Positions 16,573 to 45,752 are shown, counted from the first letter of the stretch. The stretch is 64,000 nt of DNA from Spizellomyces punctatus DAOM BR117 (GCA_000182565.2 KQ257452.1); one strand, 5' to 3'. The notes: a model not told the origin generated them from the letters alone. Program-made: numbers and translations.

Positions 16573-16595
16573 GTTTTCATGGCAACAGTGAGTCA
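16573..16595 (+). promoter_or_regulatory. X-box + AG + TGAGTCA composite upstream of COG8
   Basis: GTTTTCATGGCAAC-AG-TGAGTCA. Confidence 0.6.
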
Positions 16596-16675
16596 TGCGA
16601 GCAGAACGCGGCGTTGATCGCGCGGCACTTCTGCTGTCGTCCTTCCACCACCCGATCTTCCCCATCCCCGCAAGC

Positions 16676-18988
16676 ATGGAGCGCATCCTGACGAGAAACC
16701 ATGCTATCAATGCACATACATCCACAGTCTCATATGGACACGATCTTCTTGTTACATTGCTGGAAGAGACGGCGACGGAAACAGCCCGCCTCCTCCAAGC
16801 TCCACCAACACCCTCAACGCCCACACCACAAACCCCACAGCAAGAGCATGCACAAGTTCCCCGAAGACCCTCGTCAATGCTTCTATCACGTAAACCGTCT
16901 ACGTTTGCGGCGAAACCAGAAACCCTTCCTGCGCATCCTACGCGCAAGGTGTCCCAGGCTCTATTGGAAGACCAACACGTGACATCGATAGAACGAGGAC
17001 CAGCACCTGCTGCTGGTACGGAGATAGTAACCAAAGAACTCTTTGCTGACGCAGAATACCAATCCTATCTTGACTATCTAACCTCTTGCTCATTGGAGTC
17101 ACTTAAAAATGAGCCCGTGTCATTGACGAAGGAGGCTACCCGATTACAACAACAACTAGCGGATCTCGCCTACACTGAATACCGATCATTCTTGCGCGCG
17201 AATGAGTGCACGAGAGCATTCCGCGACACGTTTGAAGCGTTGGAAAGTCGACTAGACTCACTCACGAGCTTGCTGCCGGATCTTGAGAGAGAGTGCACTT
17301 CCTTCGCCTCCTCGTCAGCTGCTGACGTGTTGAAACAAAGACGACGCGAACATTTGGTTCTTAACCAACACTCGAAATTGGTGGAGATTCTCGAAATACC
17401 TCAGCTCATGGATACATTGATTCGAAACGGATACTATGAAGAAGCAATGGATTTGCATACTCATGTACAACGACTGCTGCTTCGATTTCCGCATTTCGAG
17501 CTCTTGAAGTCCGTGGCCGATGACCTTGATGAGGCAATCAAAGTCATGTTGGCACAGCTCGTAAACCTTTTCGCGGGCGATGTGAAATTGCCGTTGTGTA
17601 TCCGTGTTGTGGGCTATCTACGACGCATGGAGGCCTTACCTGAGCCCGAATTAAGGTTGACATTTTTGCAACAACGAGATAAATTTTTTCGAAAGCGCAT
17701 TGAAGAAGGTTGCGGGAAGGAACCGAGTGGTACTGGTGCAGGCAAGGATCATCTCGACTACCTAAAGAAATACATCGATGTTTGGACGTGTCGAGAGTGT
17801 TTTTTCGATATCGTTGCCCAATATCGAGGGATATTTTCCGATTCCCTAAACACGCAGACAAGTCACGCAACCACTGAAGCACATCAGGGGAAGTCAACTT
17901 CCGCACTCCTCTACGACGCCACGGCCCATCCAACACTCACGCAGTCCATTCTCACTTCATACGTCACATACCGCATCGAACACCTATGCACCACATTGAA
18001 AACTCATCTACCGCATGTTACGGACGCAAGTCAGGTCGCCAGCTTGTCAACACAAACCATGTATTTCGGGATGAGTCTTGGGTGGGTGGGAATTGATTTA
18101 CGTGGATTAGTTGGACCGCTATTTGAAGAAACGGTTGCGGGGATTGTTGAGAAAATCATTGGGGAAAGTGTACGAGATTTTGTTGGGTGGGTGAAGGAAA
18201 ATTCTGCTGTCAGCATAGGAGCAGAATTAGGGACACCTACCGGGCGTACCACGACAGCAAAGGATCCGTTCTTGACGGGCATCTACGTCAAACACTCTAC
18301 CATTCCGAATGCAGAATGGACAACCCCACGAACTGGTGGCGGCCCTCAACCCATACGAGTCATACCGGCACCCACACCGCTATTGGCCCACCCACCTCTT
18401 GCACACCTTCTCAACGCCTTTTTCACCGCCTATAATAACCTACGCGCTCTCCCTGCACCATCTCTCCGGACCCGAATGGAATCGTATGTCCAGGAAAAAT
18501 TGATCCTCTGTGCGGAGACCTTGGACGAGGGAATCGCGTCTGGATGGGATGGTTGGTCCGAAGACGGCAGGAAGATTGCAAAATTAGCTGCTGCTGCATG
18601 GATAGATATGTTAGTGCCAAACGTGATGGATGGTCTACAAATGGTGTTTGGTGGGCAGAAAGCTGAAGGTGCTAGTCAGCTAGAAAAGATTGTGGGGCCA
18701 TTGAAGAAGTGGTTGGTGGATTCCAGCGGTCAACAGGACAATGCAGAGTCACAAACTGTACTCGCAGCAAATGACGAGGCCGTCCCTGTAGGACAGAACG
18801 GCGGACTCGCCAAAAGTGAGAATCAGAAAGACAGCGATGGTGACGACTTGCATCCCTTGGAAGCGAAACCGGATGAGGATGAACGGGATACAAACCTAGG
18901 TGACCAGGAGAGGGTGACACCGGCTGCTGTGAAAGTTACTGTCGCTGCACATCCTTTAGAAGGACCCGATGCATCGGGCAATGGCTGA
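16676..18988 (+). CDS. COG8: Conserved oligomeric Golgi complex subunit 8 (Dor1)
   Basis: LVEILEIPQLMDTLIRNGYYEEAMDL, LPLCIRVVGYLRRM, FFDIVAQYRGIF, LLAHPPLAHLLN. Single long ORF; start could be 16595 or 16676. Confidence 0.93.
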   Translation: MERILTRNHAINAHTSTVSYGHDLLVTLLEETATETARLLQAPPTPSTPTPQTPQQEHAQVPRRPSSMLLSRKPSTFAAKPETLPAHPTRKVSQALLEDQHVTSIERGPAPAAGTEIVTKELFADAEYQSYLDYLTSCSLESLKNEPVSLTKEATRLQQQLADLAYTEYRSFLRANECTRAFRDTFEALESRLDSLTSLLPDLERECTSFASSSAADVLKQRRREHLVLNQHSKLVEILEIPQLMDTLIRNGYYEEAMDLHTHVQRLLLRFPHFELLKSVADDLDEAIKVMLAQLVNLFAGDVKLPLCIRVVGYLRRMEALPEPELRLTFLQQRDKFFRKRIEEGCGKEPSGTGAGKDHLDYLKKYIDVWTCRECFFDIVAQYRGIFSDSLNTQTSHATTEAHQGKSTSALLYDATAHPTLTQSILTSYVTYRIEHLCTTLKTHLPHVTDASQVASLSTQTMYFGMSLGWVGIDLRGLVGPLFEETVAGIVEKIIGESVRDFVGWVKENSAVSIGAELGTPTGRTTTAKDPFLTGIYVKHSTIPNAEWTTPRTGGGPQPIRVIPAPTPLLAHPPLAHLLNAFFTAYNNLRALPAPSLRTRMESYVQEKLILCAETLDEGIASGWDGWSEDGRKIAKLAAAAWIDMLVPNVMDGLQMVFGGQKAEGASQLEKIVGPLKKWLVDSSGQQDNAESQTVLAANDEAVPVGQNGGLAKSENQKDSDGDDLHPLEAKPDEDERDTNLGDQERVTPAAVKVTVAAHPLEGPDASGNG

Positions 18989-19324
18989 TTTAATAACAAT
19001 AATAATTATCAGAGCCTCTACCGTAGTTTCCTTTGGCTGTCTTCATGTTTAGGTCGAGTTGGGACGGGATTTCAGTTCGTCACGAGCTGATCGTTAGATT
19101 TTGAAATTAGTCGGCATTTCTCTCCAGAATGCCAGCCATCATTCATGGCACAGGTGGTCGATGAAGGTGGACTGCGGCCATTACCAAAGCGAAAGTGAGG
19201 CCATTGTTTGACATCCAAACGGTCAGAGGATACGACCATCAATGAGCGTCACAACCCAGACCCAATATTATATTCTGATCATCCTTTCAGCACATCCAGT
19301 AGAATCACTAAAATCGGCGCACGC

Positions 19325-21945
19325 TCACCGCCCACTGTCTGGGCTACGTCTCTCACTTTCGATGCCATCCATTTCATTCGTATCTTGTTTCGAAACATCG
19401 TCGTCGTCACCTTCCCATCGCCCACGCTTTGCTGCCCGACCATTTTCTTCTTGATCATCTTCGTTGTCGTCACCATCGTCGTCTTCCTCTTCCTCCTCGC
19501 TCTCCTCCTCGCTTTCTTCGTCTCCATTTCGTTTTTGCATTTGTGCCATCCGCTGTTTCCATTGATGTGCAACAGCCAATAGCTTGAAGTTTGGTCGTTC
19601 AGTTTCGTCATCAGGGAAGATGTAATCGTAGTACTCCTCCCAGCCGCTCTCCTCCCCTGTAACTTCGTCCACAACCTTTCGGCGCTTCTTGACCGCCCGC
19701 GGCATTTTATCCTGGACCTTCGCAAGACCCTCTGCATCCCCATGAGTACGTTCAAAGTCCCGCCATGCTTCAAGGAGAACCACTCGTTCCTCCTTGCCTC
19801 CTTCTCCCCGCTTTTGAAGCGTTGTGTACGCCCGATTGAAGATCTTTCTTGCAGCGTCGACCCGCGCACCATCTTCACCATTGTCCAGAGCCGTGTATTC
19901 AAAGTTGGCAAAGCTCACCCAGACCTGTACCAGATGCACGTTACATGATGTACAAAAAATTCCAATTACTACCATGGGTGCATACCTTTACATGCTCAGT
20001 CCTCTGTAGCAGTCGTTCGTAAAGAGCTCTTCCCTTTTTCCACTCCGCTTCTTCAACCTCAAAGTCAATATATCCTTTCCACAACACCTCTGGCATATCG
20101 AGTAATGGTTGCTCAACGGCGATTTCAAAGATTCCTCTGCTCCTCTCTACATCACCGAGCATTTTTTCCAACTCTGCGTACTTGATCCAGGCATAGCAGT
20201 TACTGGCGTTCCATTGGAGATACTTTTCGTAAAGACTTCTCACGCGGTCGAATTCTCTAAGCTGAATTTCAAGTTCGATGTAGCCTTTGAAGAGCTTCTC
20301 CTTCGGACAAAGGCCGATAGCAGTACCAAGGGTCCGTCGTGCTGCGGTAAGGTCAAGGCGTCGAATGAGGAAGTGTGCATACTGTAGCCACACTTTGGCA
20401 AAGGTGAAATTTTTGTGCGGAACTATTTTTATACATTGCTGATACACATCCTTCGTGCGGTCGTAATCCTGCAATTGACAAGGTGTCAGCATAACGGTCT
20501 TGTCGATGATGTAAGCGAGTTTGGACCAACCTTCGCCACCATTTCCTCCCATACGGCGTAAAAGATCCACAAATATATGTAACGCCGCCAGAATCTCTTC
20601 TCGGCAATTGGCGGAACTTGAGCGATCGCTCGCTCGTACACATTTCGCACTTTGGCTTGATCACCTGCAGACTCTTCCAGCCGTACATAGTCGAACCAGA
20701 TGTCATAGTTTTTCGGATTTGCGGCTAGTTCCTGGAGGGCGGCTGTCAGCGCACAATAATTCACCTTTAATAATGCCTACGATCAAAATACCTCTTCATA
20801 TTTGACCCGCCGCTTTCCTATGATGACATCTTCAATACCCTCCTTCCCACCGTGTTGCTTTTCAAATTGGGTATACATGTTGTAGAGGTTTTCTGTTTGG
20901 CCTTTAGGAAGCTTATCTAGAGCGTACTTGTAAATTACACGGGCTCGCTCAATTTCTTTCTGTCTCGTCTCGAATTTGGCAAACGAGACGTAAACGTTTT
21001 GGTCAATAAATTCTTCGCCAAGCATTTCAAGACACTTTTCGTATATCTCGCGGGCACTGTCTGCATGTTCAGATGTTATTTTTCCCATTCTCACCTGATC
21101 AAGAATTCTGCATAATAGTTTACCTTGTTTCCCTATCGATTCCTCGAATTTGGCCCATTTGATCCAGTTTTTCGGCTGAGGATGTATTCCAACAAATCGT
21201 CTGAAGATGTCTCTTGCCCGGTCAAGTTCCCGATATCGCTTTTCCATTTTAACATAAGCCATCCACGCTTCCTCTGCCGGTTCCCATTTCATCCATCGTT
21301 CAAATACTTGTCGAGCACCGGCCACGTTTCCCAACAACTCCTCCATGTAGACATATTTGTACCAAAACGTATCCACACGAGGGAGGACTGACACAGCTCG
21401 ATCAAAAATATTCCGTGCTCGATTTACATTCTTGTGCTTCATTTCCATCTCAGCATATCGTAACCAAAGCACCTGATTTCGATGGTCTACATCGAGTGCC
21501 CGCTCGTATATAGACCGAGCCCTACGCATGAGAAACCAATATAAGTAAGAATATTCCTTTATAAAAACAAGACACATGGTCTTTTATTCTGCAGACGATA
21601 ACACACCTATCCATTTCCTTTACGGACTCTTCCCAAGCAGCATATTTCAGCCAGGCTGCCATGCCATGTTTATTGCGCCTAACTTTATCCTCAAACTCTT
21701 TTCGCTTTCGCAGCCGATATTCATCGAGTTCCTCTCCATCCGCAATCTTCTGTTTGGGAACGGTAGCACCGGCTTCTTGACGCTCCTTGGACTCACGTAG
21801 AATCTGCTCCGCTGTGATTTGCACAGGGGCGGGATTCTTGTTCTTGACCTGTGATCCAAGTAAAAGCTGAGTAAAAATACCCAACTTACAAAGATGTGCT
21901 ACTTCCTCGCCTGCGCACCTTTGCAGGTCTTGGTTGCCTGTCCAT
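19325..21945 (-). CDS. CLF1: Pre-mRNA splicing factor Clf1/crooked neck (HAT repeats)
   Basis: [62 protein letters not shown]. Confidence 0.96.
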
Positions 21946-22142
21946 GCTGAGTGGTTGGAGATGGAGATTCGATGGGAATACCTTACTAGATTCCGCCTAG
22001 CAAAAACCGAGCGAGAGAAGACAGAGACTCAATCTTATAGAGCGCTAGTACGACTAGCTTCAGTTCACGACTGCCTCGTAAATCTCAAATTGTGATGGAA
22101 GACGAGATCAGCTCCGTGCAACTCGTTGCATTTGCTCGTCAC

Positions 22143-22156
22143 GTTGCCATGACAAT
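22143..22156. promoter_or_regulatory. X-box-like motif in the CLF1/DCAF4 divergent region
   Basis: GTTGCCATGACAAT, preceded by the near-palindrome TGCAACTCGTTGCA. Confidence 0.45.
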
Positions 22157-22603
22157 GATGGCACAGTCAACACAGGGCAGCTATGTTCAAACGCCGATCG
22201 CTTTATTCCTTGGTCCCCCCAAAAGGCCTGATGCAACGATCGTGATAAAGTAGGCCATGCGGAATCTATAAGGCTGCTCCATTCAACTTGTGCTGTGGAG
22301 GATCTGCACCTTGGAGCGGCGCGTGTTCGCAAGGCCCAGGAAGCATGTAGCGATTCTGCCCAGCAAACAGAGGGTTGATTGCTAGATGACCAAAGACACT
22401 GGAAAGTCGTCTGAAATCTGAATTCCTTTGTCGGTCGATGCAGCGTTCTGTTGGTGGGTTCGGAACGTCAAACCCGTTTGGCATATCCGATCGGTAACGT
22501 AATCAATTACCCCATCGGCTTGGAGCTGTGCCACTACCTTGCAAGTTTCTCGTTGTGTTTTCCCGACCGTTGCGGTCGTCTCCCTGGATGAAGCCAAGCG
22601 TTC

Positions 22604-25151
22604 ATGCATCGACAGCCGCGGGGGGGACAGTCCCACGGTGATGCTCAGAGCAGTGGGAGGGGTCGGCGGTATCAGGGCGGTAATAGTGACTCATTAGATA
22701 GAGGAGGACCCGCGAGAAGAAAGCCGAGCTGGGGTGGTCACTCACGAACGCACCAACGTCAGTCAAGAAAACGGCCCCGTCACGGCTGGAAGGAAGGGCC
22801 CCAAGGCCTCGCCGACGCGGTGACGTCTGCCGACGTGGCTTCCTCCTCTGCTGACGATTCCAATACCGCTGTTCCTATGGAGATCCCTGGATATTATTTC
22901 GTATGTTTACAGCGCGAAGCGACAATGACTTGTCCAAGCTGATGTTTACTTTGAACAGGACCCAGAAAAAAACCGCTACTTTAAAATTGTTCCAAGTAAA
23001 CATGCGTCTTCATCTTCACGATATACTGTCGACGCGCTCCGTGAGCAAGAGGCAACAAAAGAACGAAACCGCGTAGCTGAGAATATTCAGAGGAAGCATC
23101 GTGAAGAGGTATAAGCCACTATCAGAGGCAACAGGTTACATATTTACTCATCCTGACTTTCACCCAGATTTTACCTTCCCGCCGGCATGGGGCCGGTTTC
23201 GTTTATCCAACTTTGCCGTTGTTTATAAGTGATCGGGAAATCAATGCCAGTCTGCATCGTCCAGGCGTCAATGTGCAAAGGTATCCTGGTGCATACAGTT
23301 TTATATATCTGTTTGACCAGACAGTCTAAAGCGGCAGCGAACATATCTAGCCGCGCGTGGGAAACTATGATAAAGTATCTTCGTCACCGGTCAACCATCC
23401 GAAATGCGGGTGGGGAAGTTGATGGAATCGGCTTTGTAATGCAGCCAGCAGACATCACCGATTTTCAGGTAGATATGCGCCGCTTCGATTGCATGCGCTC
23501 ACTTGCTAAAGTCGCGGGAATTTGTGAACACAGATGCATCCTTTTCGAAATCATGTCTGTGTAGGCCAAACTGATGGCTCTGTAAGGTAAACTGAGCAAA
23601 GATTGTTGTGGTAGTTCCTGGCTTCTATCGCGACAAACTCTTACATTTGCTGTGCACCATAAAAGACTCTTCGCGTTTGACGTTGAGCAGAAGGAAAGTG
23701 GCCCACCCCAGTACGAACAGAAAAGCCCGTACCTTCTGAGACATGAGGATTCGGAGGTGCGCTGTCATTCGCTTGTGATCTTTTCTTGTTTGTATGCACT
23801 CTACTTATCATGATCCGGAGCAGATCACCTCACTACATTATGGGCATGTCTCAGAAAATACTAGTACGATCATGTAGGAATCCTGACGTAATGGCTGTCT
23901 TGGTCGTCGTCTAATTTGATCCTTTTGCCATAGAACAACGTGCTTGGGGCTTGGTGGTCGACCCGGATCAGTCCAGGCGTACCAGTACCGACACCAGTCT
24001 CCATCGATTGGGCATAATCTATTTGCGGCAGGTCAGTTGCACTCAAATGAAGCGAGCAAAGCGTAATTTTATGCCCTTAAGCCTAATTCCCCCCGATATC
24101 GTAGAGGTTGGTACCTATCGGCTCATGATGAGCAAGATGAGTGTTTTCACCAGCGCAGTCGCAACGCTACCTCATGAAGCGGGCGGGTCTATAATTGCGG
24201 CAGGTACTTGTATTTTCGTCTCGCTTGACGCCGTAAGTGGTTCTCCTCACTCGCTTGCGGAAATTAGGTGCCAAGGGGAAAGCAATTGTCATAAAATCAT
24301 GGGAGGGAGGAAATGGAAATGCACAAGTCAGGCATTTGCTGATGCCTGGAAAAACAGACGTTCTTGCCCAAGCGTTTGACAAAATGGTTAGTGCGATTCC
24401 CTCTGGCGATGATGCAGCATGAAAGTCAACCCTACGATTCTGCATCCAGGGTACCGTTCTATATAGCGGGTGTCGGGACGGGTCGATACATCTTTTTGAT
24501 GTGCGCACATCAGGAACGATTGCAAATGAAATGACGCTAGGTCAATCCGGCAGAGGCGGAACTGTCCAGACTCATGAAGGTGGATCCATACGAAGGCTGG
24601 CTCATCCTTCTGCAATCTGTTGCATACAAGATCTAGGTGCGAATCAAGTTTTATCAGCTGCTATGGATGGCTCGGTAAGTTTATCAAATCACGGGCGAGT
24701 ACTACCGTGCCTAAAGCAGTGAGTTTATGCATCGATATCTGCAGATGTATATGTGGGACACGCGATTTCCGACTTCCCCTATTGTGGAGTTCCACGGCCA
24801 TGTTAATACGCATGCAAGAATCAACTTTTGTGTGAACGAAGACAAGAATGTACTTATTGCAGGTATGTTTTTGAGACGATGCCAATCACGGTTAGTTTGT
24901 ATCCAAACTTCACACTGTCGTTAGCTGGCCTAGACCGCCATCTGCGAGCATGGAGCATGCGTACAGGCGCGCTCCTTTCTCAGCAGCCACCCACACAAAC
25001 GAATGCAATCGGGCCGAGAATCATTAGATTCATGACAGATGGAAAGGATAATAGTAGCGGGTATTCTGAGCAGAATTCATGGGCACGTATGGCTGGTGGT
25101 CTGGTCTGGGGGGCGTGCGGCAAGGACATAGAGATATGGGGTTTGGAATGA
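22604..25151 (+). CDS. WD40 protein, DCAF4/WDR21-like
   Basis: EIPGYYF|DPEKNRYFKI across an intron, followed by WD repeats (DVLAQAF, LYSGCRDGSIHLFDVR, MYMWDTRF, GLDRHLRAWSMRTG). Confidence 0.8.
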
Positions 25152-25284
25152 GTACACCTATTCACCACTTCAAATCGCAAGCGAATCATTTCTATTGGAT
25201 ACTATCATTATTGAGACTACATTATGATACAGTTAGTTGCTATAGAAAAATATGATGGAAAGCACACTTATGGTACACTCTACA

Positions 25285-26073
25285 TTAAGCAGTCAAAGTT
25301 CCTTTGGTGCTTGGAACGTCATTTGGTGCTCCCGAGGGCGAAATGGCCTCACGCAGTGCAACTGCAAGAGCTTTGAAAGCAGACTCCGCACTATGAGGAA
25401 GAGCAATAATGTAAGCGATAATTCCGTGAGCGGATACACGGGCCGTGGCCATACCGGTGATGATCATTAAATCCCCTGATCACATCAACATGAACCGTCA
25501 ATCCAGCGCTGGTAGCAAAGCTCTCGATAACGTGAGGAATCATCTCACAGCTCAGATCGCCAATTTTCTCCCTCTTCAATCCCAACTCCACCACAGCATG
25601 GGGTCTCCCCGAAACATCCACAACAGCTCGAGATAGCGCTTCGTCCAATGGAGCATACGCGTAACCAAAACGCTTTATACCGGTAGGTGGGCCCAGCGCT
25701 TGCTTGAAGGCGTAGCCAAGGGCAATGGCACAGTCCTCAGCGGTATGGTGATCGTCAATATGAAGGTCGCCCTTGCAGGTGAGAGTAAGAGACCAGCGGG
25801 AGTGCTTTGCTAGCGCATGTAGCATCTGTTCGCATCAAAGGCGTCAAAGATATATCAGTGCATGCTGTTTATTGCAAGGTCTTATTTGGAGGCTCCTGTT
25901 CTTCCTTTTTGCAGTTCCCTCTACACAGCCTTAAAACTTACATGGTCGAGAAATCCAACCCCTGTGTTGACCTCAATCGACTGGGCTTGATACTGATCGA
26001 GTGCGAGGTTGACATGAATGTCCGTCTCGTTCGTCTTTCGTGAAATGGTCGCCGTTTTCGTTGTTTGTGTCAT
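25285..26073 (-). CDS. HIS3: Imidazoleglycerol-phosphate dehydratase
   Basis: [69 protein letters not shown]. Confidence 0.97.
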
Positions 26074-26132
26074 GTTGTTGCAATGGTGTGAAATGGCGGA
26101 CGACCCCATCAAACGCAGTAGTTTGATACTCG

Positions 26133-26146
26133 GTTGCCATGGCAAC
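26133..26146. promoter_or_regulatory. Perfect palindromic X-box upstream of HIS3
   Basis: GTTGCCATGGCAAC, about 60 bp upstream of the HIS3 ATG. Confidence 0.65.
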
Positions 26147-32275: not shown

Positions 32276-35200
32276 ATGCGGACCAGAGATATTAGAGGAT
32301 TTCATCCTCCTTCATGGGCTTATGCGCTAGGCATTTTTCTTTCTGTGACTACGCTATGTGTCCCCCTGTCCTCCGCCGAAATGTCCGTATCCGCATCCCT
32401 CACGATTCCAGATTGTGCCAGTGGTCTGTATTGGAGTCCAATACTGATGGCCTGCACAGCCTGTCCTACCAGTGAAAATGAGATTCTTGGTCCTAAAGGT
32501 TGGTACTGGAAGGGAGTACGGATCTGAGCAAATGAACTTACTTATCGGAAGGGACGTGATCCAGGGTCATGTGTATGTAGTGTTGGCTATGCACGAAATC
32601 AAGTCAATGGACGCTGTGAAGCATGTCCGGCAGGAAAGGTATGCGGTTTGCTGAATCTTGAATTTCTCTTGAAGAATAATTCTCAACGCTTGTTGCAGGT
32701 TGGATCTACCGATGAGAGCTTTTGCATTGGTTGTGCCTCACCAGCATCACAAACTGTTCTCGCGCAAACTGGTAGCCAATGCACTTGCGGTTCTATGGAA
32801 TATCTCGGTATGTTGTTTATGGCGCCTTGATCTGCCTGACTAGGGTAACATTATTTTGCATATGATTGAAGTGGATCGCAACGCCACTGGCAGACTTGAT
32901 ACCGCCATCTGTACATCCTGTCCAGCCAATTCCCACCCCAGTTTAGATTTATCTACATGTGTAGAATGTCCGGATCCAGGAATGAATGCTGTCAACAGTA
33001 GCGGCAGCTATAGTTGCGTTTGTCGGACCGATCTGGGTTATAGCGCAACTCCAGTAAGTAACGATACTTGAGTCCGGATCGCCTTTACAAGATATCTGAT
33101 AGTCAAGCGTATCAGCAAGACCATACATGCCTTCTTTCGACAGACATTAGCCAGATAAATTCTTTGATCGGCAGCACGAATCCAAATACAATTACATATC
33201 ATGTACGTGCACTATTCTTGGGTTGCATCATTCAGTTCTAATGTCGCTTACAGAATCTAGTTGGACCGGAGGGCACCATCACGCCCATTACCATTACATC
33301 AGACGTATTTGCTTCCCTATTTATGAAGGCGGCTTCCCAATGCCTGGTACTTATTCGCCTTGCGGAATATTTTGGTTATATGGAACACACGTTAACCGTT
33401 GTCAAACCTTGGCCAATAGCGCCAGCAGATTTCCCAAGCTTGTCAGGCGCTGGCTAATCTCTGCGTGCTCCAGTTATACGATTTTTCGACGGCACCCTGT
33501 CAAGTCTATCAGTCGATTATACGAGGACAGTCGTCCGTGGCAGATACACTTGACGCGTGAGTAGAGTAGCCTTTGCTACTGCCCAAGTAATCTCCTAACA
33601 TTCAAATATGAAAAGGCCCCAAGGTTTGCCATGGCTATACTATGGTCTACTGAGCTCCCAGGAATCTACAACGTTTACAAGTCAAGTGCTTAATCTCACA
33701 GTGGATATCGGTTCTGGAGCGGTATCTACATTTCGACCTCTTGTTCGTAGTGCAATCATTAGTTTAAGACGCCTGTGATATCTGTAGGGTGTATCTCGTT
33801 TACCATTTGTCATGTCTACTTATTCGTTGAACGGAACATATCTGGGTTTGCAGAAGCTGACCACCCAGCTACAGGTGGGTACTCTTTTGCGTCGAACACA
33901 GTGGAGCAGAAGCTGACACGATACGTAGCTTTGCACTGCAGTGCCTAGTGAGCGAGCAGATGATTGGCGCCAGATTGGATACGACTACGTAGCATCGTGC
34001 ACAATAGATTTGGCAAGTGCCATCAATTCCACTTCTGCTGCCACCTTTTACGATTTATGTAAGGAACATGAATATCCTAAACTATCACCCCACATAATTC
34101 AAATACCTTTCTCTTGGTAGTTATAGAGGATAGTTTGGGGATATTGAAAGCTGTACCAACACGCTTTATCAACTATCGTACACTTGCTGGACGCCAACCT
34201 AATCTGAATGCCGATCCTCTCGACTACGGCTCCAGTGTTCTTTTCCGCCGGTTTTTCAGCATTGACGATGTAAGTGGAGTCCAAGGCGGAATTTTAAAGG
34301 TTATTCGAGTGCCCCTTTCGATGACGTTCTGGTAAATGCAGCGTATTCGCATTCATTCTCTGAACCGACGTTAACTGTAAACTTGTTGAGGCAGGATTCG
34401 TAAGGCAGATTCAGATGGGCGGATTTACATACCAGTCCTTGATGTCACATATACAGAGCGAGACGTTTCCACACTCTCAGCACAGACAAGTATCTCTTTG
34501 CAGGTGAATAATCTGTTGTGTGGCAGGCCTTCAATACAATCTTCCGCTGACTCGGGATCAGTTTGTTTTCTCTGCTCTATATATCATGCATCTGGACAGC
34601 TTCTGGCGAGTCATGACTGTCGTGTTTTCACTGGTCTGTGCTACGGCAGGACTGCTGGCTTTGTACAGTGCCAGAGCATGGAGTACGAGAAATCTGACTG
34701 TATCGCAAGGATGGGATTTCAATGTAAGTGCTCTCGCTGAATTTGATAAACAGTTTGTTGAGGTTAATGATTTGTTCCAGTTCTTGAGTAGATGCATTCT
34801 CATTCTCGCTGGATGTCTAGCACCATTACTTTTCTGGTTCTTGCTTGCCGTATCCGCGTATTGGTTCTTCTTTTATAAGAACCAAACCGTGATGAAAGTC
34901 CTCTTACCATGGTCGGATTCCGATCTGCACAAGTTCAATGCAATTGTCGTTGCTACACTTGTCTGCCAGGTTTGTATTGGGTTTAGCAATACAGGGTTTT
35001 ATGCCCAGTGCCCAGATCGGTAATTTGTTGACGGTTTCCCGCAGAGCGCTTACATTATCAAACAACTTTACGAGCAATGTACAATCGACATTTTCTTCAT
35101 CGATTGGGAACGGAGTCGTGGGAAGGTTATGGCTGCCGGCGGTGAAGGGAAGCCACGGCTGGCAGCTGTAAGTGTGTGGAGGAGCATATTCATGATGAAT

Positions 35201-36650
35201 GAGTGGAACAAGATGCAGGTGCGAGCGAGCGCATTCGCTTCGAAAAGTAAAGTATCTCATAACAGATTTCACAGACATATCGCCGGGTGAATATCGGGTT
35301 TTCGCTTCTGGCCATGTACTTTATAGTCGAGGGGCTCAAAGTTCGATATGCTGCTACTCCTCAACCGAATATTCACGACCTTACTCCTGGGCTAGTAAGC
35401 CCCATTTTGCTATTTGCAGTCGAATGTCTACTGTGGATTTTGCTCGCCGTTGGCCAAGTGAGAACTATCAAACTGCATAATGCTATACACGGCACTATCT
35501 AACTTCAAGATCAGATCCTTTTTCGTGCGGTTATCTATGAGAGATTCTACAAGGATAAACTGCTGGATTTTGTCGATGTTTTATCCATGGCAAACTTGAG
35601 CATTCTAGCGTTCGACGAATTGTGCCATGGCTATTACATTCATGGTCGCTCCGTCCACCCGTGCGCTGACACAAATATCGGAGAGCTGAATGCATTCTTG
35701 CGTAGGGAACAGGTACCCTTGGATTACTTGAACAGATATATACTTCTTACTTTATTGCTAACTTACATCTTGCAAATCATAGGCCGACTTGGTACCAAGG
35801 CGTGGAATGCAAGATACGGATCAGCAGTGCTTTGAAGTATATACACAAAAAGAGATGCGCTCCGCGTTTAACAAAGTGTATTCAATCGTGATTGCTGAAG
35901 TGGTATGTACGGTCATTATAGTATGGTCATATATGCGAATTCAAAGATGTTGCTTGGATTTCCTAGGAGGCACAAACTGCAGGCAATGTTGCTGCCCGAC
36001 TACGTATGGATGAATGGCATTTTATTTCGAATATTTATGCTATACATTGGTTTTTTCTAATTTTTGAACTTTTTAGAGCGTCTATCTGCTGACAAAATGC
36101 AGCGGCGATTCAACGGAGCTGATGAAACCCGTGTTCGCGCATACGAAACTGTCAACCACTTTGTAAGATCGTTTTTTGATAAGGTACGACCTTGTTCTTT
36201 AATCGCAGCTGGAATGAATGAAACGAAAGTCATGGATCAGTAACCGCTTCGTTCCTTAATCAGAACCTAAAAGAATTCCAATATCATATCCGGGAACGTA
36301 CATATTTTGAACGCTTCTTGGGTACCACTCCGGACGTATCACAGAACACTGTGCTTTTCCACAGTACGTTGATACTTCGGCTTTGCTCAATGTGATTCCG
36401 ACATGTCAATCTAATCACACTTTACCCAGCACCTTCATCTTTCACGAGACTTCTGTTGTACGGTATCGAATACCATCTCCTGATATTGTACATCCTGATT
36501 TTCACGGTGGCGGATAACGGGTTGGAAAATACTGGTGCAGCAGCAATTATAACGTACGGTGTAGATGTTGTGATACGGGTGATACGAAAGCATTTTGGGG
36601 CAAGCAATTTGGCGAGGAAGACAATGATGGATAGGAAGTTTTTAATTTAG
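32276..36650 (+). CDS. TMEM67: Meckelin (TMEM67/MKS3), ciliary transition-zone protein
   Basis: Signal peptide, Cys-rich repeats, ACQALANLCVL, LPWLYY, RRFFSIDDVSG, DIFFIDWER, VSVWRSIFMMNEWN, HGYYIHGRSVH, NLARKTMMDRKFLI. Confidence 0.95.
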
Positions 36651-36704
36651 TTCTCACTTTTTGTATTTTTGTCAGTAAGATAATTCGAGGGGTATGCTTA
36701 CCGT

Positions 36705-38129
36705 TCAGTCGACATCGGCAATAGTTGCTTCAACCTTAATCATTTCCAAGTCGGCTGGAATAGGCGGTCTTTTGATGAGCACTTTAATGATGGTCCACCA
36801 AGAACGAACGTGGCTCATCAAAGAACCATCTGATGACGAGGCAGTCGCAGTTGGGGGAGGCGGCGCATGGTGCAGTCGTACTGATCCTGAGTCCACTTGA
36901 ACCATCGGGGTGTTTGCCTGGTTTGGTCTGGGACCGACACTTCGCTTTGACCTCATAGTCCAGGGATCCGGGCCTGCCCCACATTCGTACTCCTTCTCGA
37001 GTTCGATAAAACGCCAGGTGGGCATTCCTAGATAGACTGACATACAGAATATTAATCAGCTCGCTCCATGACATAGCATACATACTGGCCATGCTTACTA
37101 AGTTTGCAATGGAAAATTGTTAGCGTGAGTCCCGCGCCTCCTGTAAACATCATAACGCAGGCATAAACAAACAGGACGGCCGCAATCACTTGGGATGTCC
37201 CTGAATGGTCGTTCAAGATTCGGCCCACTGTTCAAAATAAGCATCGGTGAGCGGCAAATATCGCTCTAACGAGGGCGATGACCTACCGGTGGCATGAAAC
37301 ATAGTGGGTTCTTTGAAGTACAAGGCAAATGCATACAGAGATATCGCAGCACTCCAAAATGCAAAAAGCCAGCCGAAAACCAGAGCACCAAAGAAAGTTG
37401 GGTAATTCCTACGGCCGATGTCTTGCCCAAGAAAATCGCAATGGTGATCAAATCCATCAACGCATCTATTGCAGGGCTTGCAGTGTTTTGTGTTTTCATC
37501 AACCTTCACTTGGCATATGTGGCAATAATGCGTTTCTTTATTGATGACTGGAACTCCGCGAAGCTTGGTAAATCGGACATTACGCTCCACGTCAGCTGCC
37601 GGAACTCGGGGATCCTCCGTGTCCACAGAGCCTGTGTAGGCAGCCAAGAGAAACGCCAAGGCGGCAAAAGCTCCAGGAAGAACAGTGAAAGTAATGCGTT
37701 CTGTTCCAGAAAAGAAGCGAACGACCAGAAAATAGTATCCAAGAAGACCCAAGATGAACCACGACAGCAGGAAAACCGTTTCAACTTAATGACCCATACA
37801 TGTCAGCCATGCAACAAGGAATGCAACTTTTGAATCCGTAGTTAATTACCTTGAAAGGGTCTTTGCCACATATTCATCTTCCACCATGCGTTAAAGTTTG
37901 CGGGGCCCGAGGTAGCGGAGCTGTGATAGCGCTCCGTAGATGTGACCATCAAAGGCAGTTTGATTTTTGCCGGCATGCGAGGAATTCGTTTGCCGTTCGA
38001 ATAGTATTGAATTGGACGAGGCCGAGGTGGTTCTGGATCAATATCGGTATATACCGCCAATGGATCATCGTTGGGTCTTGTGGTCCCCATCGATGAATGT
38101 TGCGACGAATTTGAGTTTGAATGTGCCAT
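36705..38129 (-). CDS. DHHC palmitoyltransferase (ZDHHC1/11-like)
   Basis: WQRPFQ, YCHICQVKV...KHCKPCNRCVDGFDHHC...GRRNY, with flanking TM helices. Confidence 0.88.
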
Positions 38130-38382
38130 GGTTTTTTGGGCAAGAGATGATGGAGAAATATCTAAATGGAAAAGAATGTTTCTGTTACCCTTTTTCAATA
38201 TACCCCGTTGTTATTTACGTATTTCTCCGAATTCGACGTCAGCGAACTGGAAACCCTTGGAAGGGTTGAGGGTCGGAGGATTTCATACGTAGCCCTTACG
38301 TGATCAAAAACTAAGCCACTCCTGGCACCGTCGAATGCACCAACCAGCCCTTGCGCCTGGGCATCACCATTTTGGCCAAAAC

Positions 38383-40522
38383 ATGATGCTCAACGGGAAA
38401 GAAAAGCAGCCAGGTAGTTTTAAATGGGATGAGACAAGAAGAAGGGAATCCGGCTCATTGATACTGTGGGTTTAGGATCAGATGAGATTGCGTCAAATCG
38501 ACAGATCACCCCAGAACCTGAGAACAACGGCACGAATGAGGTACTTTGAAAACATGATATCACAGCATACGGTTTATTGAATCCACATAGTAACGTACCT
38601 TTGGGAGCAGAACTCTAGTGGCAAGATTGACGTCTTGGGAAGTATAACCGTCGGTAAACGTCCACGCGCAACCGAAGATCACACGCAAGCCAAAGTGGAG
38701 GTAGGATAATCTATTTTGGCTTATTTGCCCGGGGCACGTCAGAAATACCAATCCTAACATTTCATGTAGAAACCCAGCACCGCAATGCATGATGCACCAA
38801 TTGTAAGTCTGTCAACGGTGAAGGACCAAAAGAGCGAAGAGATAGGCGGCAGAAGGGACGGTGGATTGTCGAGCGGCGCAGCAGGTGTCAAGCGCCCTCG
38901 TACGTTGGACGATGACAAAGAGCATGACAGCGAAGACATTTCGAGAGGGAGTGGAGCGAGTGTCAAGCGTCCTCGTACACCAGACGATGAGGAGGAGGTA
39001 ATCATCGAATCTTTCAAGAGTCGTATTTCCGTACATATTTTAACAGCCTTGCTATACGAGCAGGTGACGGCCAATGCACACGTATCGGACAAGTCTACTA
39101 CCGAAGGTGGGCGCTCTACTGCTACACCGGAAGGAACCCCTGAGCCCGCAGAGGTGAATGGAAAACGCGACTGGCATTTGTAAAGTATAACTAATTGACG
39201 TGATCAACCTGTGCAGGTGACGACACCAACCCCTAGAGAGAAGGAACCGAAGACTGCGACGAATCCGTTCCTCAAAGATACCGGAAAAGACGTTACATGG
39301 GACGACCTGGTTGAGGAGGAGGATGAAGATTCTACCCAACCCGCCGCTCCCTCACAACTCGGCACCCCCATGAAGATATCCGGCCCATCTGCTCAATCAA
39401 GTCCTATATTCCCTTCCAGTTTCAGCACCGGTTTTGGCGGATGGTCGAGCTGGGGACAACCAGGAAATGGAAAGGCTGATGGTGGTTCCATATCTTCGCC
39501 TTCGTTCGGCCTCTCGAGTGCTCCGGTATGATCGTTCCGCTGCTGTCGGTTCATTATGTTGGGAACTATGTGCTCAGTGTAAACTCGATAGAATTCCGCA
39601 ATGTCCACTCCTCACAAGTCCAACGTAAACGGCCCTGTTTTCGGCTCTAACCTGTCAGGTTCAGCATTTGCGTCCTTCGCCGCCTCTCCGTTGACGTTTG
39701 CGTCACTTGCATCCCCCAGTCGGCCAACCGAATCCAAGGAAAAGGTGTCCGATGACTCTGGCTCATCCTTTCCGGAACTATTAGCTGAAAAGCTTCAAGA
39801 CGAGGAAAAGAATTCATTAGATCTTAATGCCCCCTCTCCTCTAATCAAACCCGTCAAGCATGATCTTGCAGAAACGAAAGGTGCGCAATTGTAGACCGTT
39901 CAAGTGCAAGATCTGCATATTCATGTTGCTTATCTACATAATAGCTGTTTCTGGAGAAGAGGATGAGGAAACAATATATCAGGTTCGTTAACAGATCCTG
40001 TTCTCGCATGCATGCAACCAAGTTGACGGCGGCCTTCTTCTTCAGACTCGTGGAAAGCTTTTTGTGTGGGACGCGAGTGTCAAGGGCAAAGAAAGATGGC
40101 GAGAGCGTGGGAAGGGAATGGTAAAGGTCAATGTCAAAAATGGCCGTGCTGAGCAAGGACGTCTGGGTAGGTATCCAACCATGCATGACCAATGTGATGC
40201 TCAACTCTCACTTTTTTTTCGCTGTCACCAGTCATGCGATCAGACGGGTCTCTACGATTGATTCTTAACACAAAGATTTTTTCCGAAATGAAGTGCAAGG
40301 TCATTAGTGAAAAATATGTAGAGTTTCTAGGGACCACAGTGGATCAGCCTGGTCAAATAGCGAAATTCTTACTCCAGGTATGGGGGAAGGATATATTTTT
40401 CAAAACATCTGTATGTGCGTAACTCATAAAAAACCTCTTGTTTTTAGTTTAATAAGCGTGAACCGGCAGATGAACTGAAGGAGGCAATAGATCGGGTATT
40501 GGAAGATGCAGGGGAGGCATAG
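38383..40522 (+). CDS. Ran-binding-domain protein (RanBP3/Yrb2-like)
   Basis: Exons joined by hand from MMLNGKEKQP. Three KRPR motifs, an FG/Ser-rich middle, and a RanBD (SGEEDEETIYQTRGKLF...WRERGKG...GRLVMRSDGSLRLILN). Confidence 0.85.
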
Positions 40523-40712
40523 TTCAACGCAAGGGCTTTGACATTTAATGCAATGGGACTTCATGTGAGCTAGGATTTCATTACGAGTTCTCCAGCTGTA
40601 TTCAATGGAAACAATGCACGAACGCGGACAAACATAAACTCTTCGTAGCCGTGCATTTTCCATTATCTCCGAGTACCATGTGCGCGAGATCCACTCACAC
40701 TAGCCAGCTATG

Positions 40713-40735
40713 GTTTCTATGGGAACAGTGACTCA
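40713..40735 (+). promoter_or_regulatory. X-box + AG + TGACTCA composite upstream of ATP10
   Basis: GTTTCTATGGGAAC-AG-TGACTCA; same spacing as at 16573. Confidence 0.6.
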
Positions 40736-40807
40736 TCCCGCAGGAGAGCTTTTGGGTGTCCCATATATTTGAGCATTCGAGATCACTAGATCCTGGTGCC
40801 GACCGAG

Positions 40808-42319
40808 ATGCTGCGAACCAAGGGAAATATCATCCGTGGTTGCCTTCCTTACTGTCGCACATTTGCGACCCAACCCCCCAAGGTACCCCTGCCGCCGCTA
40901 CCACCACTACCTGGAAAAGGAAACGAAAGTTCAGATGCACCTCCGTCAACCATTGACACACCCTCCCCTCCTCCGCAACCGACATCCTCAGGCCTTTTGG
41001 ATCGCTTTGCTAGTAAGCTTCGACGGGATATTGAAGAAATGGAGCAGAGGCGGAAGGAGAAGGAAGCGGCGGCTGGACTCTCACTCCCAGAGACTGCTAT
41101 CCCAAAAGTTCAAAAACAGTGAGTGGTTGTGGCGGTATTGGGTTTGCCTTTTCTTCATTAACAGTCGATTCTTTTACTAAAGACCAGGATTGCTCTCACG
41201 GGTGGACGAACGACTGCAACAGCAGCGACGTGAATTGGAGGCTGCTCAGTTGGCCAAGAGGGAAGCGGGACAGTCTTCCAGAGTATCCCCATCCCTGCAG
41301 AAGCGAATGGATGAATACCTTGATTTAGACGCGAATCTTCGGGAGAGGGAAGAATTGTATGTATCAAAGTTGCTTTCTCACTGTCTTGTCCGCGTGATAG
41401 AATTAATGTGCTTCCCTTTAGATTGAAGAAGGCCTTCCGGGAAGGCTACTGGGATGACTATAAAGGTGCGATCGAACAACCCTTTTTAGGGCTGCTACCC
41501 ATGTTGTTAACAGATTGAGCTTGTAGAGGCCGCAAGAAAAGGCGCAAAGCTGTGGGAAGCACCGCGTCGGATGCGAAATGCTAATGTGGGTGCAATGCAT
41601 TTGCGTGACGGTTGAGATAATGACTTTACGAAGCTCCTTCTCCATATCTTCAGGCAAGCCCACTAGTACCTAATCCGCAAAGTCGAACATTGGCTGGCCA
41701 GACAACCGATGTGATGTCGCTTGTCAGAAACAAGAAAGCCTCTCTCGTGACCTTCATGTTCTCTGCCTTTGGCGAGGTCTGTGAAACTCATCGATTTTGA
41801 TCCCCCGTGCTCACCTGTTGACATTCACATGCCTGCAGCCACACGTAAATAGCTTTGCGGATCGGTTTTTAAAGGAATTTAAGGACGTCCCGGAAGTGCA
41901 ATTGGTTCAACTAAATATTGAGGAAAACTGGGTGAAAGCGCCAGTACTTAAAATGCTAACACCTGTTGTCCGATGGAGAGTACCAAAAGATCGAAGGGTT
42001 TGTGTTCTACTCGCCATCAATATTTTCTCAACGATTAAATTAACATCCCGTTTAGGATAAATATCTACTACACTACTCCTCCATCGCTGATGCTCGACGT
42101 TCTGCGGGGATGACGAATAATGTTCTAGGTTGGGTGAACTTGGTTGATTCACAAGGTCGTATTAGATGGCAGGCGCATGGTTTGGCCAAGGATCATGAAC
42201 TAGCCACCATGATTAAATTGACCCGGAAATTGGCCGGCCTCTCCGATGTAGTGGCACCCGATATGATGGACGACGTTCCCCCAGATGTTGCTCAAGCGAA
42301 GAAGGCTCCGAGCGTGTGA
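40808..42319 (+). CDS. ATP10: Mitochondrial ATP synthase assembly factor Atp10
   Basis: Presequence-like N-terminus, VQLNIEENWVK, GMTNNVLGWVNLVDSQGRIRWQAHG. Confidence 0.85.
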
Positions 42320-42668
42320 TAATCTTTATGTACAGGACAGCATTGCATCATATTCATTGATTAGATAGAACTGTTTCCATTCTTGTGCGTTCGTGAAATC
42401 TCGAACTTAGAGGAAAATTGTTTCCAAACTGTGCTCTTGTGATTATGCTACATGATCGATACGCGGTTGTGCATGAAGCGTCTCGGGTAGTTATTGTTCT
42501 GATTCGCTTTTAGCACAAAGCAGGGGTAGTCGGTAGTAAGTGGGCCTGTAGGTATGGAGAGCGTCTAACAACAATTATGTGCGCGGAGTGGTTAAGGAGA
42601 GCAGAAGCGGCCCTTGTGAAGGTCGTTGGTGGTTGAGGTTTTGAAGGGCCAACGATGAGCAAGGGATA

Positions 42669-43978
42669 TCAAGAGATTTGCAGTTCTATCCCGATTGACC
42701 GTCGTGGATTGTGAACAAACTGTGTCATTAGTCCAATGCTAAATAATGCTCTTTTGTACTGGCCTTCCAGTTTCAATGCCAGACCCTATACGAGACGTTC
42801 GATGTTATGCTTCATATGGCGGCAAACGCGAGAGTTGTGAACCACCCACCTCAGATAGGCTGACCCTTGCCTTTACAAGTTGTTCCTTCTCAGGAGGAGC
42901 ATACTCAACTCCAAGCACCAGATCCGCTTCATAACTGTACACGTTGAAGTCGTACCGTGTTGCCATCGTAAGATTCTTTCGTATTGTCGTTGCATAGCTC
43001 GCGCTTACATGTCCCATCATTGGGTTTGCGAGAAATGTCAAAACAGTTTTGGGTTCCGCTGGAGCGTCAAGCTTGGATGGGTTCTTGTATCGCGCTCCGA
43101 GGGAGACTGCATTTGCAAAGAGTAGTGACATGTTTAAATAATCCATGATAAGAAGTATGACTGGATTTTAACGGAACGTACGTCCACCACTTCGTTCCTT
43201 TGCAGTGTAGTAAACCTCCGAACCAGCAGACCAGTTCGAGCCGGAGAACCGATAGAGCCCGCTCAAACCGATAACATGGTCGTCTGAGCTGTAACTGAGT
43301 TCACTGCTGTATGACAAGCTCGAATAGAGCAGTTGAGTATTCACCTGAAACGACATCAAGTTAGTATCACCAGTCAAGTCAGATACCATTAAACCTGTTT
43401 CTACCGAGCTAGAGGAGTTTGGCGCTCTGGGCTTCCAGGAATTCACGCCAGATGCAACGATGAGGGTATTACGCGAGAGGGATTTGCTGTACAGCGCTTC
43501 CAAACGGAGGTCTTCAAACAGTCGTCCATATACCAAATAGTTTCCTGTGGAGGATCGGCTTAACGGAAGCTACTACACACTGCTGTAGCAAATTACACTA
43601 ACCAGTGTCAGAGGACTTTATCGCCTCGTGCGTCGAGGGAACGACCGGTATGCTACTATTTATTCTGGCTGCTCCATAGACCTTTAGATCGTCTACACAG
43701 CTCGGGGTCAAGCCGCCCTCGTCTTTGAGGTGCATCGGCGGTAAATCCAGTGGTGCCGAAGTAAATAGAAATCCCACAGAGCGAATGTTGGGTATCCCTA
43801 GTGTGTAGGTCCCTTTCAACACTGGTGATATTGTCTTGCCTAACGTAATGCTAAAGCCATGCGGAACGGCAAAGTCTAGTAATCGGCGAGAGTCGGTCAA
43901 AAGGGTAGAGTATTGGTCCTCTCTCCAGTTTATAGAGTAGTAATACCGCCGAAGGCAGTATTCCATAAAGTCCAACAT
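42669..43978 (-). CDS. MDM10: Mitochondrial distribution and morphology protein 10 (ERMES/SAM beta-barrel)
   Basis: MLDFMEYCLRRYY...W...YSTL...LLDFAVPHG, LVYGRLF..LRLEALY, SAGSEVYY, NPMMGHVSASY, TRYDFNVYSYEAD, C-terminal SIGIELQIS. Confidence 0.92.
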
Positions 43979-44218
43979 GATGGAATTGGCGGTGCGATCA
44001 ACCGACGCAACGATTCTAACGAAACGCAAGTTGATACTCGAGGTTTTCCCCATCCGGCATTGGTAGACGGATAGTTGGATGGAATCGGAGACTTTGGATA
44101 ATTACCATCGCGAGACTAAGCCACGCGACATATGTCTGCTCTTCATTATTCCTTGATAACCAAAAACACTTTCCAGCAACTGTATGCAGGTGAGATGCAG
44201 AATATGCTTTTCATTATA

Positions 44219-45627
44219 TCATAAATTTGACCCATTCCAGTTGGTGATGTCAACGCATTGTTCAATGCCCGGATATTCAGGTAAGACGAGGCCATGGCGC
44301 TTGGCAAACTCGGGAGGTACAAATCGTCCTCCCAGATAGTGATATTTACCTATCAGGTTGATCCCAGTTTAGCCATGCAGGCTCGTAGAACAGATTCTAG
44401 CGCTCCTGTGCATGCTGTTATGCCTACCTTTGAAGAATTTCGCTGACTCCTTCGGGATTGTCAGAGATACCAGCATTTCAGGTTCAGGTCCTCGACCATT
44501 TACGTTTCCTAAGAGGAAGACAATGTCTAGATTATTTTTATAAACGAAAAAGCATGTCCAGAAGTCCATCCATACCTTTTTCTACATCCCAGCCGGAAGG
44601 GATATCGATGGAAACTATAGGCAATTTAGAACCTTTAATTTTCTGGAACCTAGATGGTCAGTAATTATAGAGCTCCCCCAAATGATAACGAAGCTGCTTA
44701 CCTTAATCACCTCGTCAAACGGGGGTCGGATATCTCCACGGAAACTAAAACCTGTCAAAGCAACACGTTAGTGTCCCAACCGCGGATACAGCAGTGGTAT
44801 GGAACGCTCAAATACCAAATATGGCGTCTAAGACAATAGTGGCGGTCTTTAGTTCTTCGTCCAAATTCTCTACGAAAGGAACATTCAGGTTCTCCAACTG
44901 TCTCCGTAAGTTCTATGCCAGAAAGGGATGCACAATACGAGGTTGGTAGTCATTCGCATCTCTGCCACATGAAATGCCAACCTTGTACAAAAGCTTCTCT
45001 GTAGCCTTTGGGTAGTGGACGACCGGTCTGTATCCGAAATGAAACAAATGGCGGGCGGCGACCAGTCCATCACCGCCATTATTGCCTTGTTCATTCCACC
45101 GGAAATGAAGTTAGGCGCATAGGTGGGAATGCCTTTTTGATTGTGATAACAACGAACCTGGACCTAATCATTTGTTTTTGCAGATGTCAGTAATGTTAGG
45201 GGCCATTTTCGCAGCAAAATGTAACGCACCCGCGCACACCAATACTCGCTGAAAGCTATCTTTCGAATAGACCTTTGCCAATGCCATAGCCACGCTCAAA
45301 CCTGCCAACTCCATCAACTGTACTCATGTACATGGACACATTCAGCACTGACGTGCGGGTCGCTGCATGGTAACCAAGTACCTGGTCAACTGAGAACCCT
45401 CCCTTCTCTGGGTCCATTAATTCATTGTCCAGCTCTTGCGCGAGCGTTTGCCCAATGTACTGTACGTATGGCAGCCCCACGGCATGATAATATTGAAAAC
45501 GGGAGAGGTCAAAAACCCGACGAGGACAAGAAGAAGTCGATAGAGTTAGACAGGGCCGAATATGATGCGTCGCCAGCCCCAGGATACGCCATCTACATGG
45601 AGTATGAAACAACACCTTGTGGACCAT
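44219..45627 (-). CDS. NNR1: NAD(P)H-hydrate epimerase (YjeF_N; NAXE/Nnr1)
   Basis: AQELDNELM...[68 protein letters not shown]. Start codon uncertain. Confidence 0.92.
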
Positions 45628-45725
45628 GTCTTAACCAATGAAAGGTAAAAATCGGCAGTCGGGATGTGCAGTGTTGAATGTCGTAGAGCCAAACCCAGCT
45701 GTGTGCTGTGCAATTACGTAGGGAG

Positions 45726-45752
45726 TGAGTCAGATAGCGTAACCATGGCAAC
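45726..45752. promoter_or_regulatory. TGAGTCA plus X-box in the NNR1/STK19 divergent promoter
   Basis: TGAGTCA at 45726-45732 and GTAACCATGGCAAC at 45739-45752. Confidence 0.6.

Follow-up and report, generated by a model that had tools for sequence, protein, structure and literature searches.

Four pairs of promoter motifs were found in a 64-kb stretch of Spizellomyces punctatus DNA, hereafter the window, to which all counts refer unless stated otherwise. In each of them an X-box-like site of the RFX type lies 2 to 6 bp from an exact TGA(C/G)TCA heptamer (TGASTCA), a site of the AP-1/Gcn4 type of basic leucine zipper (bZIP) proteins. The two motifs are paired non-randomly and the pairs are located in promoters: all four are intergenic and are arranged in the order X-box, heptamer, gene, 72, 76, 80 and 98 nt before the likely ATG (Table 1). 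The data support the assignment of the composites, named A to D, to promoters of unrelated housekeeping genes, namely a Pex2/12-type peroxin, COG8, an ATP10-like gene and a YjeF_N / Stk19-like pair. On balance, the evidence leans slightly towards the reading that the composites are genuine promoter elements made of an RFX-type and a bZIP-type site, placed in short and often divergent housekeeping promoters.

Table 1 Composites and unpaired X-box-like sites in the window
Feature	Position	Strand	Sequence and layout	Gene and likely start (strand)	Remarks
Composite A	6143..6167	-	X-box-like ATAACCATAGCAAC (6167-6154), gap AGGT, TGACTCA (6149-6143); on the plus strand TGAGTCA 6143-6149, then 4 bp, GTTGCTATGGTTAT at 6154-6167	Peroxin (Pex2/Pex12-type RING), ATG 6066 (-)	ATG 76 nt after the heptamer; Pfam Pex2_Pex12 on minus-strand exons
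Composite B	16573..16595	+	GTTTTCATGGCAAC-AG-TGAGTCA	COG8, ATG 16676 (+)	ATG 80 nt after TGAGTCA
Composite C	40713..40735	+	GTTTCTATGGGAAC-AG-TGACTCA	Probably ATP10, ATG 40808 (+)	ATG 72 nt after TGACTCA
Composite D	45726..45752	-	GTTGCCATGGTTAC, gap GCTATC, TGACTCA; on the plus strand TGAGTCA 45726-45732, then 6 bp, GTAACCATGGCAAC at 45739-45752	YjeF_N-type gene, likely ATG 45627 (-)	ATG 98 nt from the heptamer; YjeF_N matches on three successive minus-strand exons
Perfect palindromic X-box, 14 bp	26133..26146		GTTGCCATGGCAAC	Imidazoleglycerol-phosphate dehydratase (His3), likely ATG 26073 (-)	About 60 bp upstream of the ATG; without TGASTCA
X-box-like site	59003..59028	-	GTTGCTATGGCCAT, overlapping the everted repeat CATAGCAAC-N3-GTTGCTATG	Mitochondrial-type ribosomal protein L6, likely ATG 58907	About 95-120 bp upstream of the ATG; without TGASTCA
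X-box-like site	22135..22156	-	ATTGTCATGGCAAC, 1 nt later TGACGAG	Upstream of Clf1/Syf-type splicing-factor gene	TGACGAG is a degenerate bZIP-like half-site
X-box-like site	12504..12517	+	GTTGATATGGCAAC	Upstream of BCKDK/PDK-type kinase gene	Without TGASTCA

Position of the composites

The four sites had been reported in the initial annotation, and the sequences and coordinates quoted there proved to be exact in every case. The same annotation had placed the COG8 and ATP10 sites about 70-80 bp upstream of the start codon, in good agreement with the distances determined for composites B and C; positions are given here relative to the ATG and not to the transcription start. The open reading frame (ORF) from the COG8 start codon comprises 770 amino acids, displays a Dor1/COG8 domain (E 7e-87) and is present in the ESM Atlas as an identical sequence. 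The ORF beginning at ATG 40808 has an N-terminus resembling a mitochondrial presequence. This ATG is probably the ATP10 start; because the ATP10 domain matches were found only in downstream exons (41785-42316), the assignment is plausible and not proven.

Three of the four composites are situated in short divergent regions, flanked by the likely ATG pairs 6066/6322 (A), 40663/40808 (C) and 45627/45821 (D). On its other side composite A faces a likely plus-strand ATG, composite C is separated by 49 nt from what may be a minus-strand ATG, and the X-box of composite D is 68 nt from the likely ATG of a Stk19-like gene. Upstream of composite B there is a small plus-strand gene whose ORF stops at 16371, and the composite is found just past the 3' end of this gene. 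The intergenic regions measure 145-305 bp, the lengths being about 145 bp (C), 194 bp (D) and 256 bp (A). No TATA-like sequence follows the heptamer in A, B and D, and C has one TATA-like stretch about 28 bp further on. When about 145 bp around the four composites was aligned, no similarity beyond the motif was detected. Since the flanks are unrelated, a repeat or mobile element is excluded and the composite is to be regarded as a motif.

Some further features were observed next to the composites. The small ORF (16006-16371, plus strand) that separates COG8 from the mitochondrial-carrier gene gave a weak match to Gon7, a KEOPS subunit, with an E value of 0.0015 that is under the Pfam cut-off. 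Downstream of this ORF, in the bin 16172-16838, a strong pile-up of 3'-end RNA reads was observed. In the divergent promoter of composite D, a PAR/bZIP-like sequence, TACGTAAT (45700-45712), is located 8 nt beyond the heptamer and represents a second possible bZIP site.

Quality of the motifs

All four composites have an exact heptamer, which in B and C is embedded in full RTGASTCAY flanks. For the X-box, the classical consensus GTNRCC N0-3 RGYAAC was applied, as quoted in the accessible text of PMC10530576. It is satisfied only by composite D (45739) and by the unpaired site at 26133. The sites had been described as matches to RFX and AP-1/Gcn4-type motifs; for the heptamers this is correct in 4 of 4 cases, whereas the X-boxes of the COG8 and ATP10 sites fail the classical consensus.

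Composites B and C are identical at 19 of 23 positions, and are thus closer to each other than either is to the canonical X-box. The sequence AACAG trails the half-site in A, B and C as well as at 26133 and 59006. No overall enrichment of RGNAACAG was found in the window (21 against 16.4 expected). As to the spacing, X-box and heptamer are separated by 2, 2, 4 and 6 bp. The common spacer claimed for the COG8 and ATP10 sites is indeed AG in both, but a fixed spacer is not maintained over the four composites, and identity in two of four is not significant by itself.

Enrichment and pairing of the motifs

By itself, the heptamer shows no enrichment: TGASTCA is present nine times in the window where 11.19 occurrences would be expected, and nine or more were counted in 78 of 100 shuffles. 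The X-box-like sequences were found in excess. With up to three mismatches, GTTGCCATGGCAAC is present at 13 sites (3.08 expected), a number reached in none of 100 shuffles, and the same holds for ATRGNAAC, which occurs 33 times (15.92 expected; 0/100 shuffles). The RFX half-site 8-mer ATGGCAAC was counted nine times against 2.47 expected, and GTTNNNATGGNAAC gave five matches at four places, where 0.14 would be expected.

When X-box-like sites were defined at up to four mismatches (33 sites), four of the nine heptamers had such a site no more than 6 bp away, while 0.10 such cases were expected (binomial P 2e-6). At up to three mismatches, three of the nine are paired (P 7e-6). A strand-aware scan for ATRGNAAC with TGASTCA no more than 8 bp behind it, allowing at most one mismatch in the heptamer, likewise returned four cases against 0.43, the maximum in 200 Markov shuffles being three. 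As both motifs might simply be restricted to promoters, the pairing was tested again inside promoter space, defined as 1904 bp of sequence preceding the 14 ATGs that were assignable, which is about 3% of the window. All four heptamers in this space adjoin one of its six X-box-like sites; the mean expected value was 0.18, and not one of 100,000 random placements reached four. Concerning the five heptamers outside promoter space, three lie within protein-coding ORFs and two (1766 and 22687) were not assigned. The proposal of an RFX-bZIP module at housekeeping genes is partly sustained, in its non-random promoter pairing and not in its fixed spacer.

Sequence collections were also searched with the literal B/C pattern, GTTNNNATGGNAACNNTGASTCA. 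Prokaryotic genomes, 596 Gb in total, contain 49 matches, which corresponds to about 5e-6 per 64 kb and compares with two occurrences in the window. The metagenome scan with this pattern, in which the spacer letters were left free and a single spacing was sampled, yielded 86 unique sites among the matches listed. In 24 of these 86 listed sites an ORF of at least 60 amino acids opens at the ATG, which gives them the look of bacterial gene starts. The distal half was good (NNN = RCC) in 15 of the 86 sites listed, compared to 2 of 46 prokaryotic sites, and the AG spacer in 9 of the 86 listed compared to 1 of 46. Among the metagenome matches listed, several with a good distal half resemble eukaryotic promoter DNA. 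The listed matches speak neither for nor against a preferred spacing, and no link to a chytrid was obtained for any of them.

Two metagenome loci displayed particular arrangements. Near base 600 of the eukaryote-like locus L100, a heptamer is followed after 5 bp by an X-box and after a further 2 bp by another heptamer, with a CCAAT box 13 nt on, a layout reminiscent of an X-X2-Y module. In locus L096, GGTAACAGTGAGTCA recurs in a repeat unit of about 36 nt with short variable spacers, and this repeat array is apparently unrelated.

Interpretation and alternative explanations

According to the reading that we favour, the element would be an RFX-type X-box, often with one good half-site (ATGGCAAC or RGNAAC(AG)), abutting TGASTCA within 2-6 bp. 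An RFX protein and a bZIP dimer would occupy the neighbouring sites, with the start codon some 70-100 bp further downstream, and would jointly, possibly in a cooperative manner, drive transcription or set its level in one or both directions. The host promoters would be very short, mostly TATA-less and often divergent. It is the sequence that suggests that RFX and bZIP proteins may be the binding factors, that they may cooperate, and that the element may have a defined position relative to the transcription start and an effect on transcription. An RFX-type identity is favoured because the enriched 8-mer is exactly the RFX half-site and because a perfect X-box is found at 26133. Vertebrates offer a precedent in which RFX functions beside CREB/bZIP factors (PMC4381081; bioRxiv 10.1101/2025.02.27.640588).

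Several observations weigh against this reading. The pattern was picked after inspection, from four instances in a single window, and the set of 14 promoters, consisting of assignable ATGs, includes every composite-bearing promoter and is therefore biased. When a half-site was combined with a one-mismatch heptamer, five cases were obtained against 4.99 expected, so that no additional composites above chance emerged. X-box promoters devoid of the heptamer exist at 26133, 59015 and 12504. The motif itself is imperfect: composites A and B possess only the proximal half-site, AGCAAC and GGCAAC respectively, adjoining the heptamer, which counts against the reading in the case of B, and in the X-box of composite C (GTTTCT...GGGAAC) neither half strictly conforms to the consensus. 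The variable gaps argue against a single rigid protein-protein geometry. Finally, the order X-box, heptamer, gene cannot be called a preference, since genes flank both sides in three of the four composites.

The composites might instead be two independent promoter motifs crowded together in tiny intergenic regions without functional coupling. The very short intergenic regions, the range of gap sizes and the lone X-boxes just mentioned are all in line with such crowding. It is nevertheless unlikely, as every heptamer in assignable promoter space adjoins an X-box-like site and the randomisations within that same space never reproduced four of four within 6 bp. A chance cluster spotted by a pattern-seeking reader is a still poorer explanation, and we consider it very improbable. 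It would be compatible with the small number of cases, with motifs and distance cut-offs having been set after inspection and with the lack of overall heptamer enrichment; on the other hand, P values from 2e-6 to 7e-6 survive hundreds of implicit tests, and all four pairs fell in promoters when assignable promoter space is so small a part of the window.

A different possibility concerns the identity of the motif. The composites could be instances of a single extended motif, approximately GTTTYYATGGSAACAGTGASTCA, read by a lineage-specific factor or serving as a core-promoter element, or else a Myb-type site (consensus YAACNG) beside the heptamer. This could account for the B/C match, which exceeds the match of either to the canonical X-box, for the AACAG behind the half-site at five places, and for the scarcity of TATA-like sequence downstream of the composites. 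The 23-mer does not fit A or D, however, the extended half-site RGNAACAG is not enriched, the enriched 8-mer coincides exactly with the RFX half-site, and a perfect palindromic X-box is present at 26133. Such an extended motif does not appear to be a likely explanation.

It is extremely improbable that the similarity reflects a feature at the RNA level. An upstream ORF could start within the X-box from an ATG (giving MATVSH... in B and MGTVTH... in C), and the ATG in the X-box of B, C and D does open a short ORF; alternatively, GTGAGT could be a 5' splice donor of an intron in the 5' untranslated region, and this sequence is read on the plus strand across the heptamer start in A, B and D. The similarity between B and C, however, reaches upstream of the ATG (GTTT). 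The upstream ORF was rejected as composite A has ATA in place of ATG and both differences between the B and C peptides are at second codon positions. The splice donor was rejected as well. Five introns are confirmed by reads of RNA run X7 in 5500-25499, all of them beginning with GTA and having CTRAY-like branch points and YAG acceptors, while the candidate introns lack all three features.

Comparison with known systems

In vertebrate promoters of class II genes of the major histocompatibility complex (MHC-II), RFX5/RFXAP/RFXANK is bound to the X1 box, CREB to X2 and NF-Y to the Y box, and CIITA acts in addition. To our knowledge, the proteins RFX5, RFXAP, RFXANK and CIITA belong to vertebrates. 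As to the half-site, its AACAG extension in the composites presumably resembles the MHC-II X1 box. Cooperative binding to an RFX site that is directly followed by a bZIP site has been described for X1-X2, as far as the available part of that report goes (PMC4381081). The composites of the window share with this module a bZIP-type site directly 3' of an RFX-type site. They differ from it in that no CCAAT/ATTGG (Y box) is found within 25 bp downstream in A, B and C, the nearest ATTGG in D being about 80 nt away. Furthermore, the heptamer is a perfect TPA response element (TRE) and not a degenerate cyclic AMP response element (CRE), the genes are housekeeping genes and the gaps are variable. The composite thus resembles the MHC-II module on paper and is not a member of it.

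In human neurons, RFX3 was reported to raise CREB occupancy at 567 shared sites, and X-box and CRE motifs were enriched near each other, according to the accessible portion of a preprint (bioRxiv 10.1101/2025.02.27.640588). The proximity of an X-box to a bZIP-type motif at such activity-dependent promoters is comparable to the present case, unlike the mammalian setting and the presence of a CRE instead of a TRE; no fixed abutting layout is reported in the part of that source available, and its text does not contain the word 'spacing'. For RFX2/3 and AP-1 in human blood cells, the text at hand describes co-activity and not an abutting motif (10.1101/2022.09.28.509751).

In fungi, RFX is usually encoded by one gene and its DNA-binding domain is conserved, and for Batrachochytrium the absence of RFX was reported, both in the available sections of PMC2873420. 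The fungal roles named in the accessible parts of PMC10530576 and PMC2873420 are in DNA damage and cell cycle. Within what is available of Coyle et al. (PMC10530576), RFX is stated to read X-boxes or single GTTRCY half-sites and to be expressed in S. punctatus. HOMER analysis gave no enriched RFX motif in the promoters of S. punctatus cilium genes, and the function of RFX in chytrids is listed there as unknown (the same portion of PMC10530576). The X-box-like sites of the window appear to belong to the same motif family as the X-boxes of Crt1/Rfx1 in budding yeast and Sak1 in fission yeast, as exemplified by the perfect X-box at 26133. Unlike in those systems, the genes are general housekeeping genes.

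The heptamer is identical in all four composites to the response element of Gcn4/CpcA and AP-1 (Yap/Jun-Fos), including the flanks noted above for B and C. In contrast to the Gcn4/CpcA element, it is found in assignable promoter space only beside X-box-like sites. Two genes of amino-acid biosynthesis, His3 (about 25.4-26.1 kb) and P5CR (about 61.8 kb), would be classic Gcn4 targets, in yeast in the case of His3, and no TGASTCA was detected upstream of either in the window. No description of a pairing of X-box and TGASTCA in fungi was found in the literature searched on RFX/X-box in chytrids or Spizellomyces and on RFX-AP-1 composites.

As to the role of RFX in flagellated fungi, the window supplies candidate targets, the housekeeping promoters, and a candidate partner site. 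Should the pairing hold genome-wide, it would provide a non-animal example of RFX-bZIP promoter syntax and would make available to a transformable chytrid a natural promoter module that is compact and bidirectional. A more far-reaching interpretation is that the single fungal-type RFX of chytrids would serve as a general factor at bidirectional housekeeping promoters of compact size, joined by a bZIP partner that abuts it, and not as a regulator of cilia or DNA damage, in which case the RFX-then-bZIP syntax would be ancient in opisthokonts and precede animals. This interpretation is decidedly unlikely.

X-box-like sites outside the composites

Additional half-site arrangements were observed at promoters lacking a composite. 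Everted half-sites, GCAAC-N-GTTGC, with a layout opposite to that of the X-box, are present upstream of the mitochondrial L6 gene, where the 9-bp arms are those of the repeat given in Table 1, and upstream of the Clf1-type gene (22118-22129). Two occurrences in the window against 0.51 expected do not amount to a significant enrichment of this arrangement. The sequences CGATCG and TTGATCG appeared recurrent by eye and were not enriched in the window.

Another X-box-like sequence, TTTGCCATGGCTAT (33625-33638), is located inside or close to the meckelin/TMEM67 gene (about 33.6-36.6 kb), near the 5' part of this gene of the ciliary transition zone. This site bears on the question whether a chytrid RFX touches cilium genes. 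The X-box-like sequence GTTGACATGGCTAC (15883-15896) overlaps the minus-strand start codon of the mitochondrial-carrier gene. At its core the X-box reads CCATGG, which is similar to the context of a start codon, so that some of the X-box-like matches probably mark where translation begins and do not represent binding sites.

Gene content of the window and sequencing data

The G+C content of the window is about 47-50%. Stop-to-stop ORFs of at least 80 amino acids were submitted to the Pfam scan (239 of 248, the nine omitted being short ORFs within COG8 that are antisense or overlap). Run X7 (raw RNA reads) and runs X1-X3 were aligned to positions 5500-25499, a range with composites A and B and not C and D. 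X7 behaves as a 3'-end library, with depth heaped at the 3' ends of genes, and 2357 of its 2574 reads lie only partly on the stretch; it yielded the five introns and no positions at which transcripts start. Runs X1-X3 look like DNA, since at least one contig across a confirmed intron is unspliced.

The resulting map displays densely packed housekeeping genes with short introns. The Pfam matches comprise an ABC transporter, the Pex2/12-type RING peroxin, Nop53, the BCKDK/PDK-type kinase and the mitochondrial carrier; COG8, the Clf1/Syf-type splicing factor, imidazoleglycerol-phosphate dehydratase, a RING protein, meckelin and a DHHC palmitoyltransferase; ATP10, MDM10, the YjeF_N protein, the Stk19-like protein and a large cNMP-binding/F-box/LRR protein; and Serinc, the mitochondrial-type ribosomal protein L6 and P5C reductase. 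The combination of genes of fungal type with a ciliary gene is in keeping with a zoosporic fungus. The window is estimated, independently of any gene model, to contain roughly 30-35 genes.

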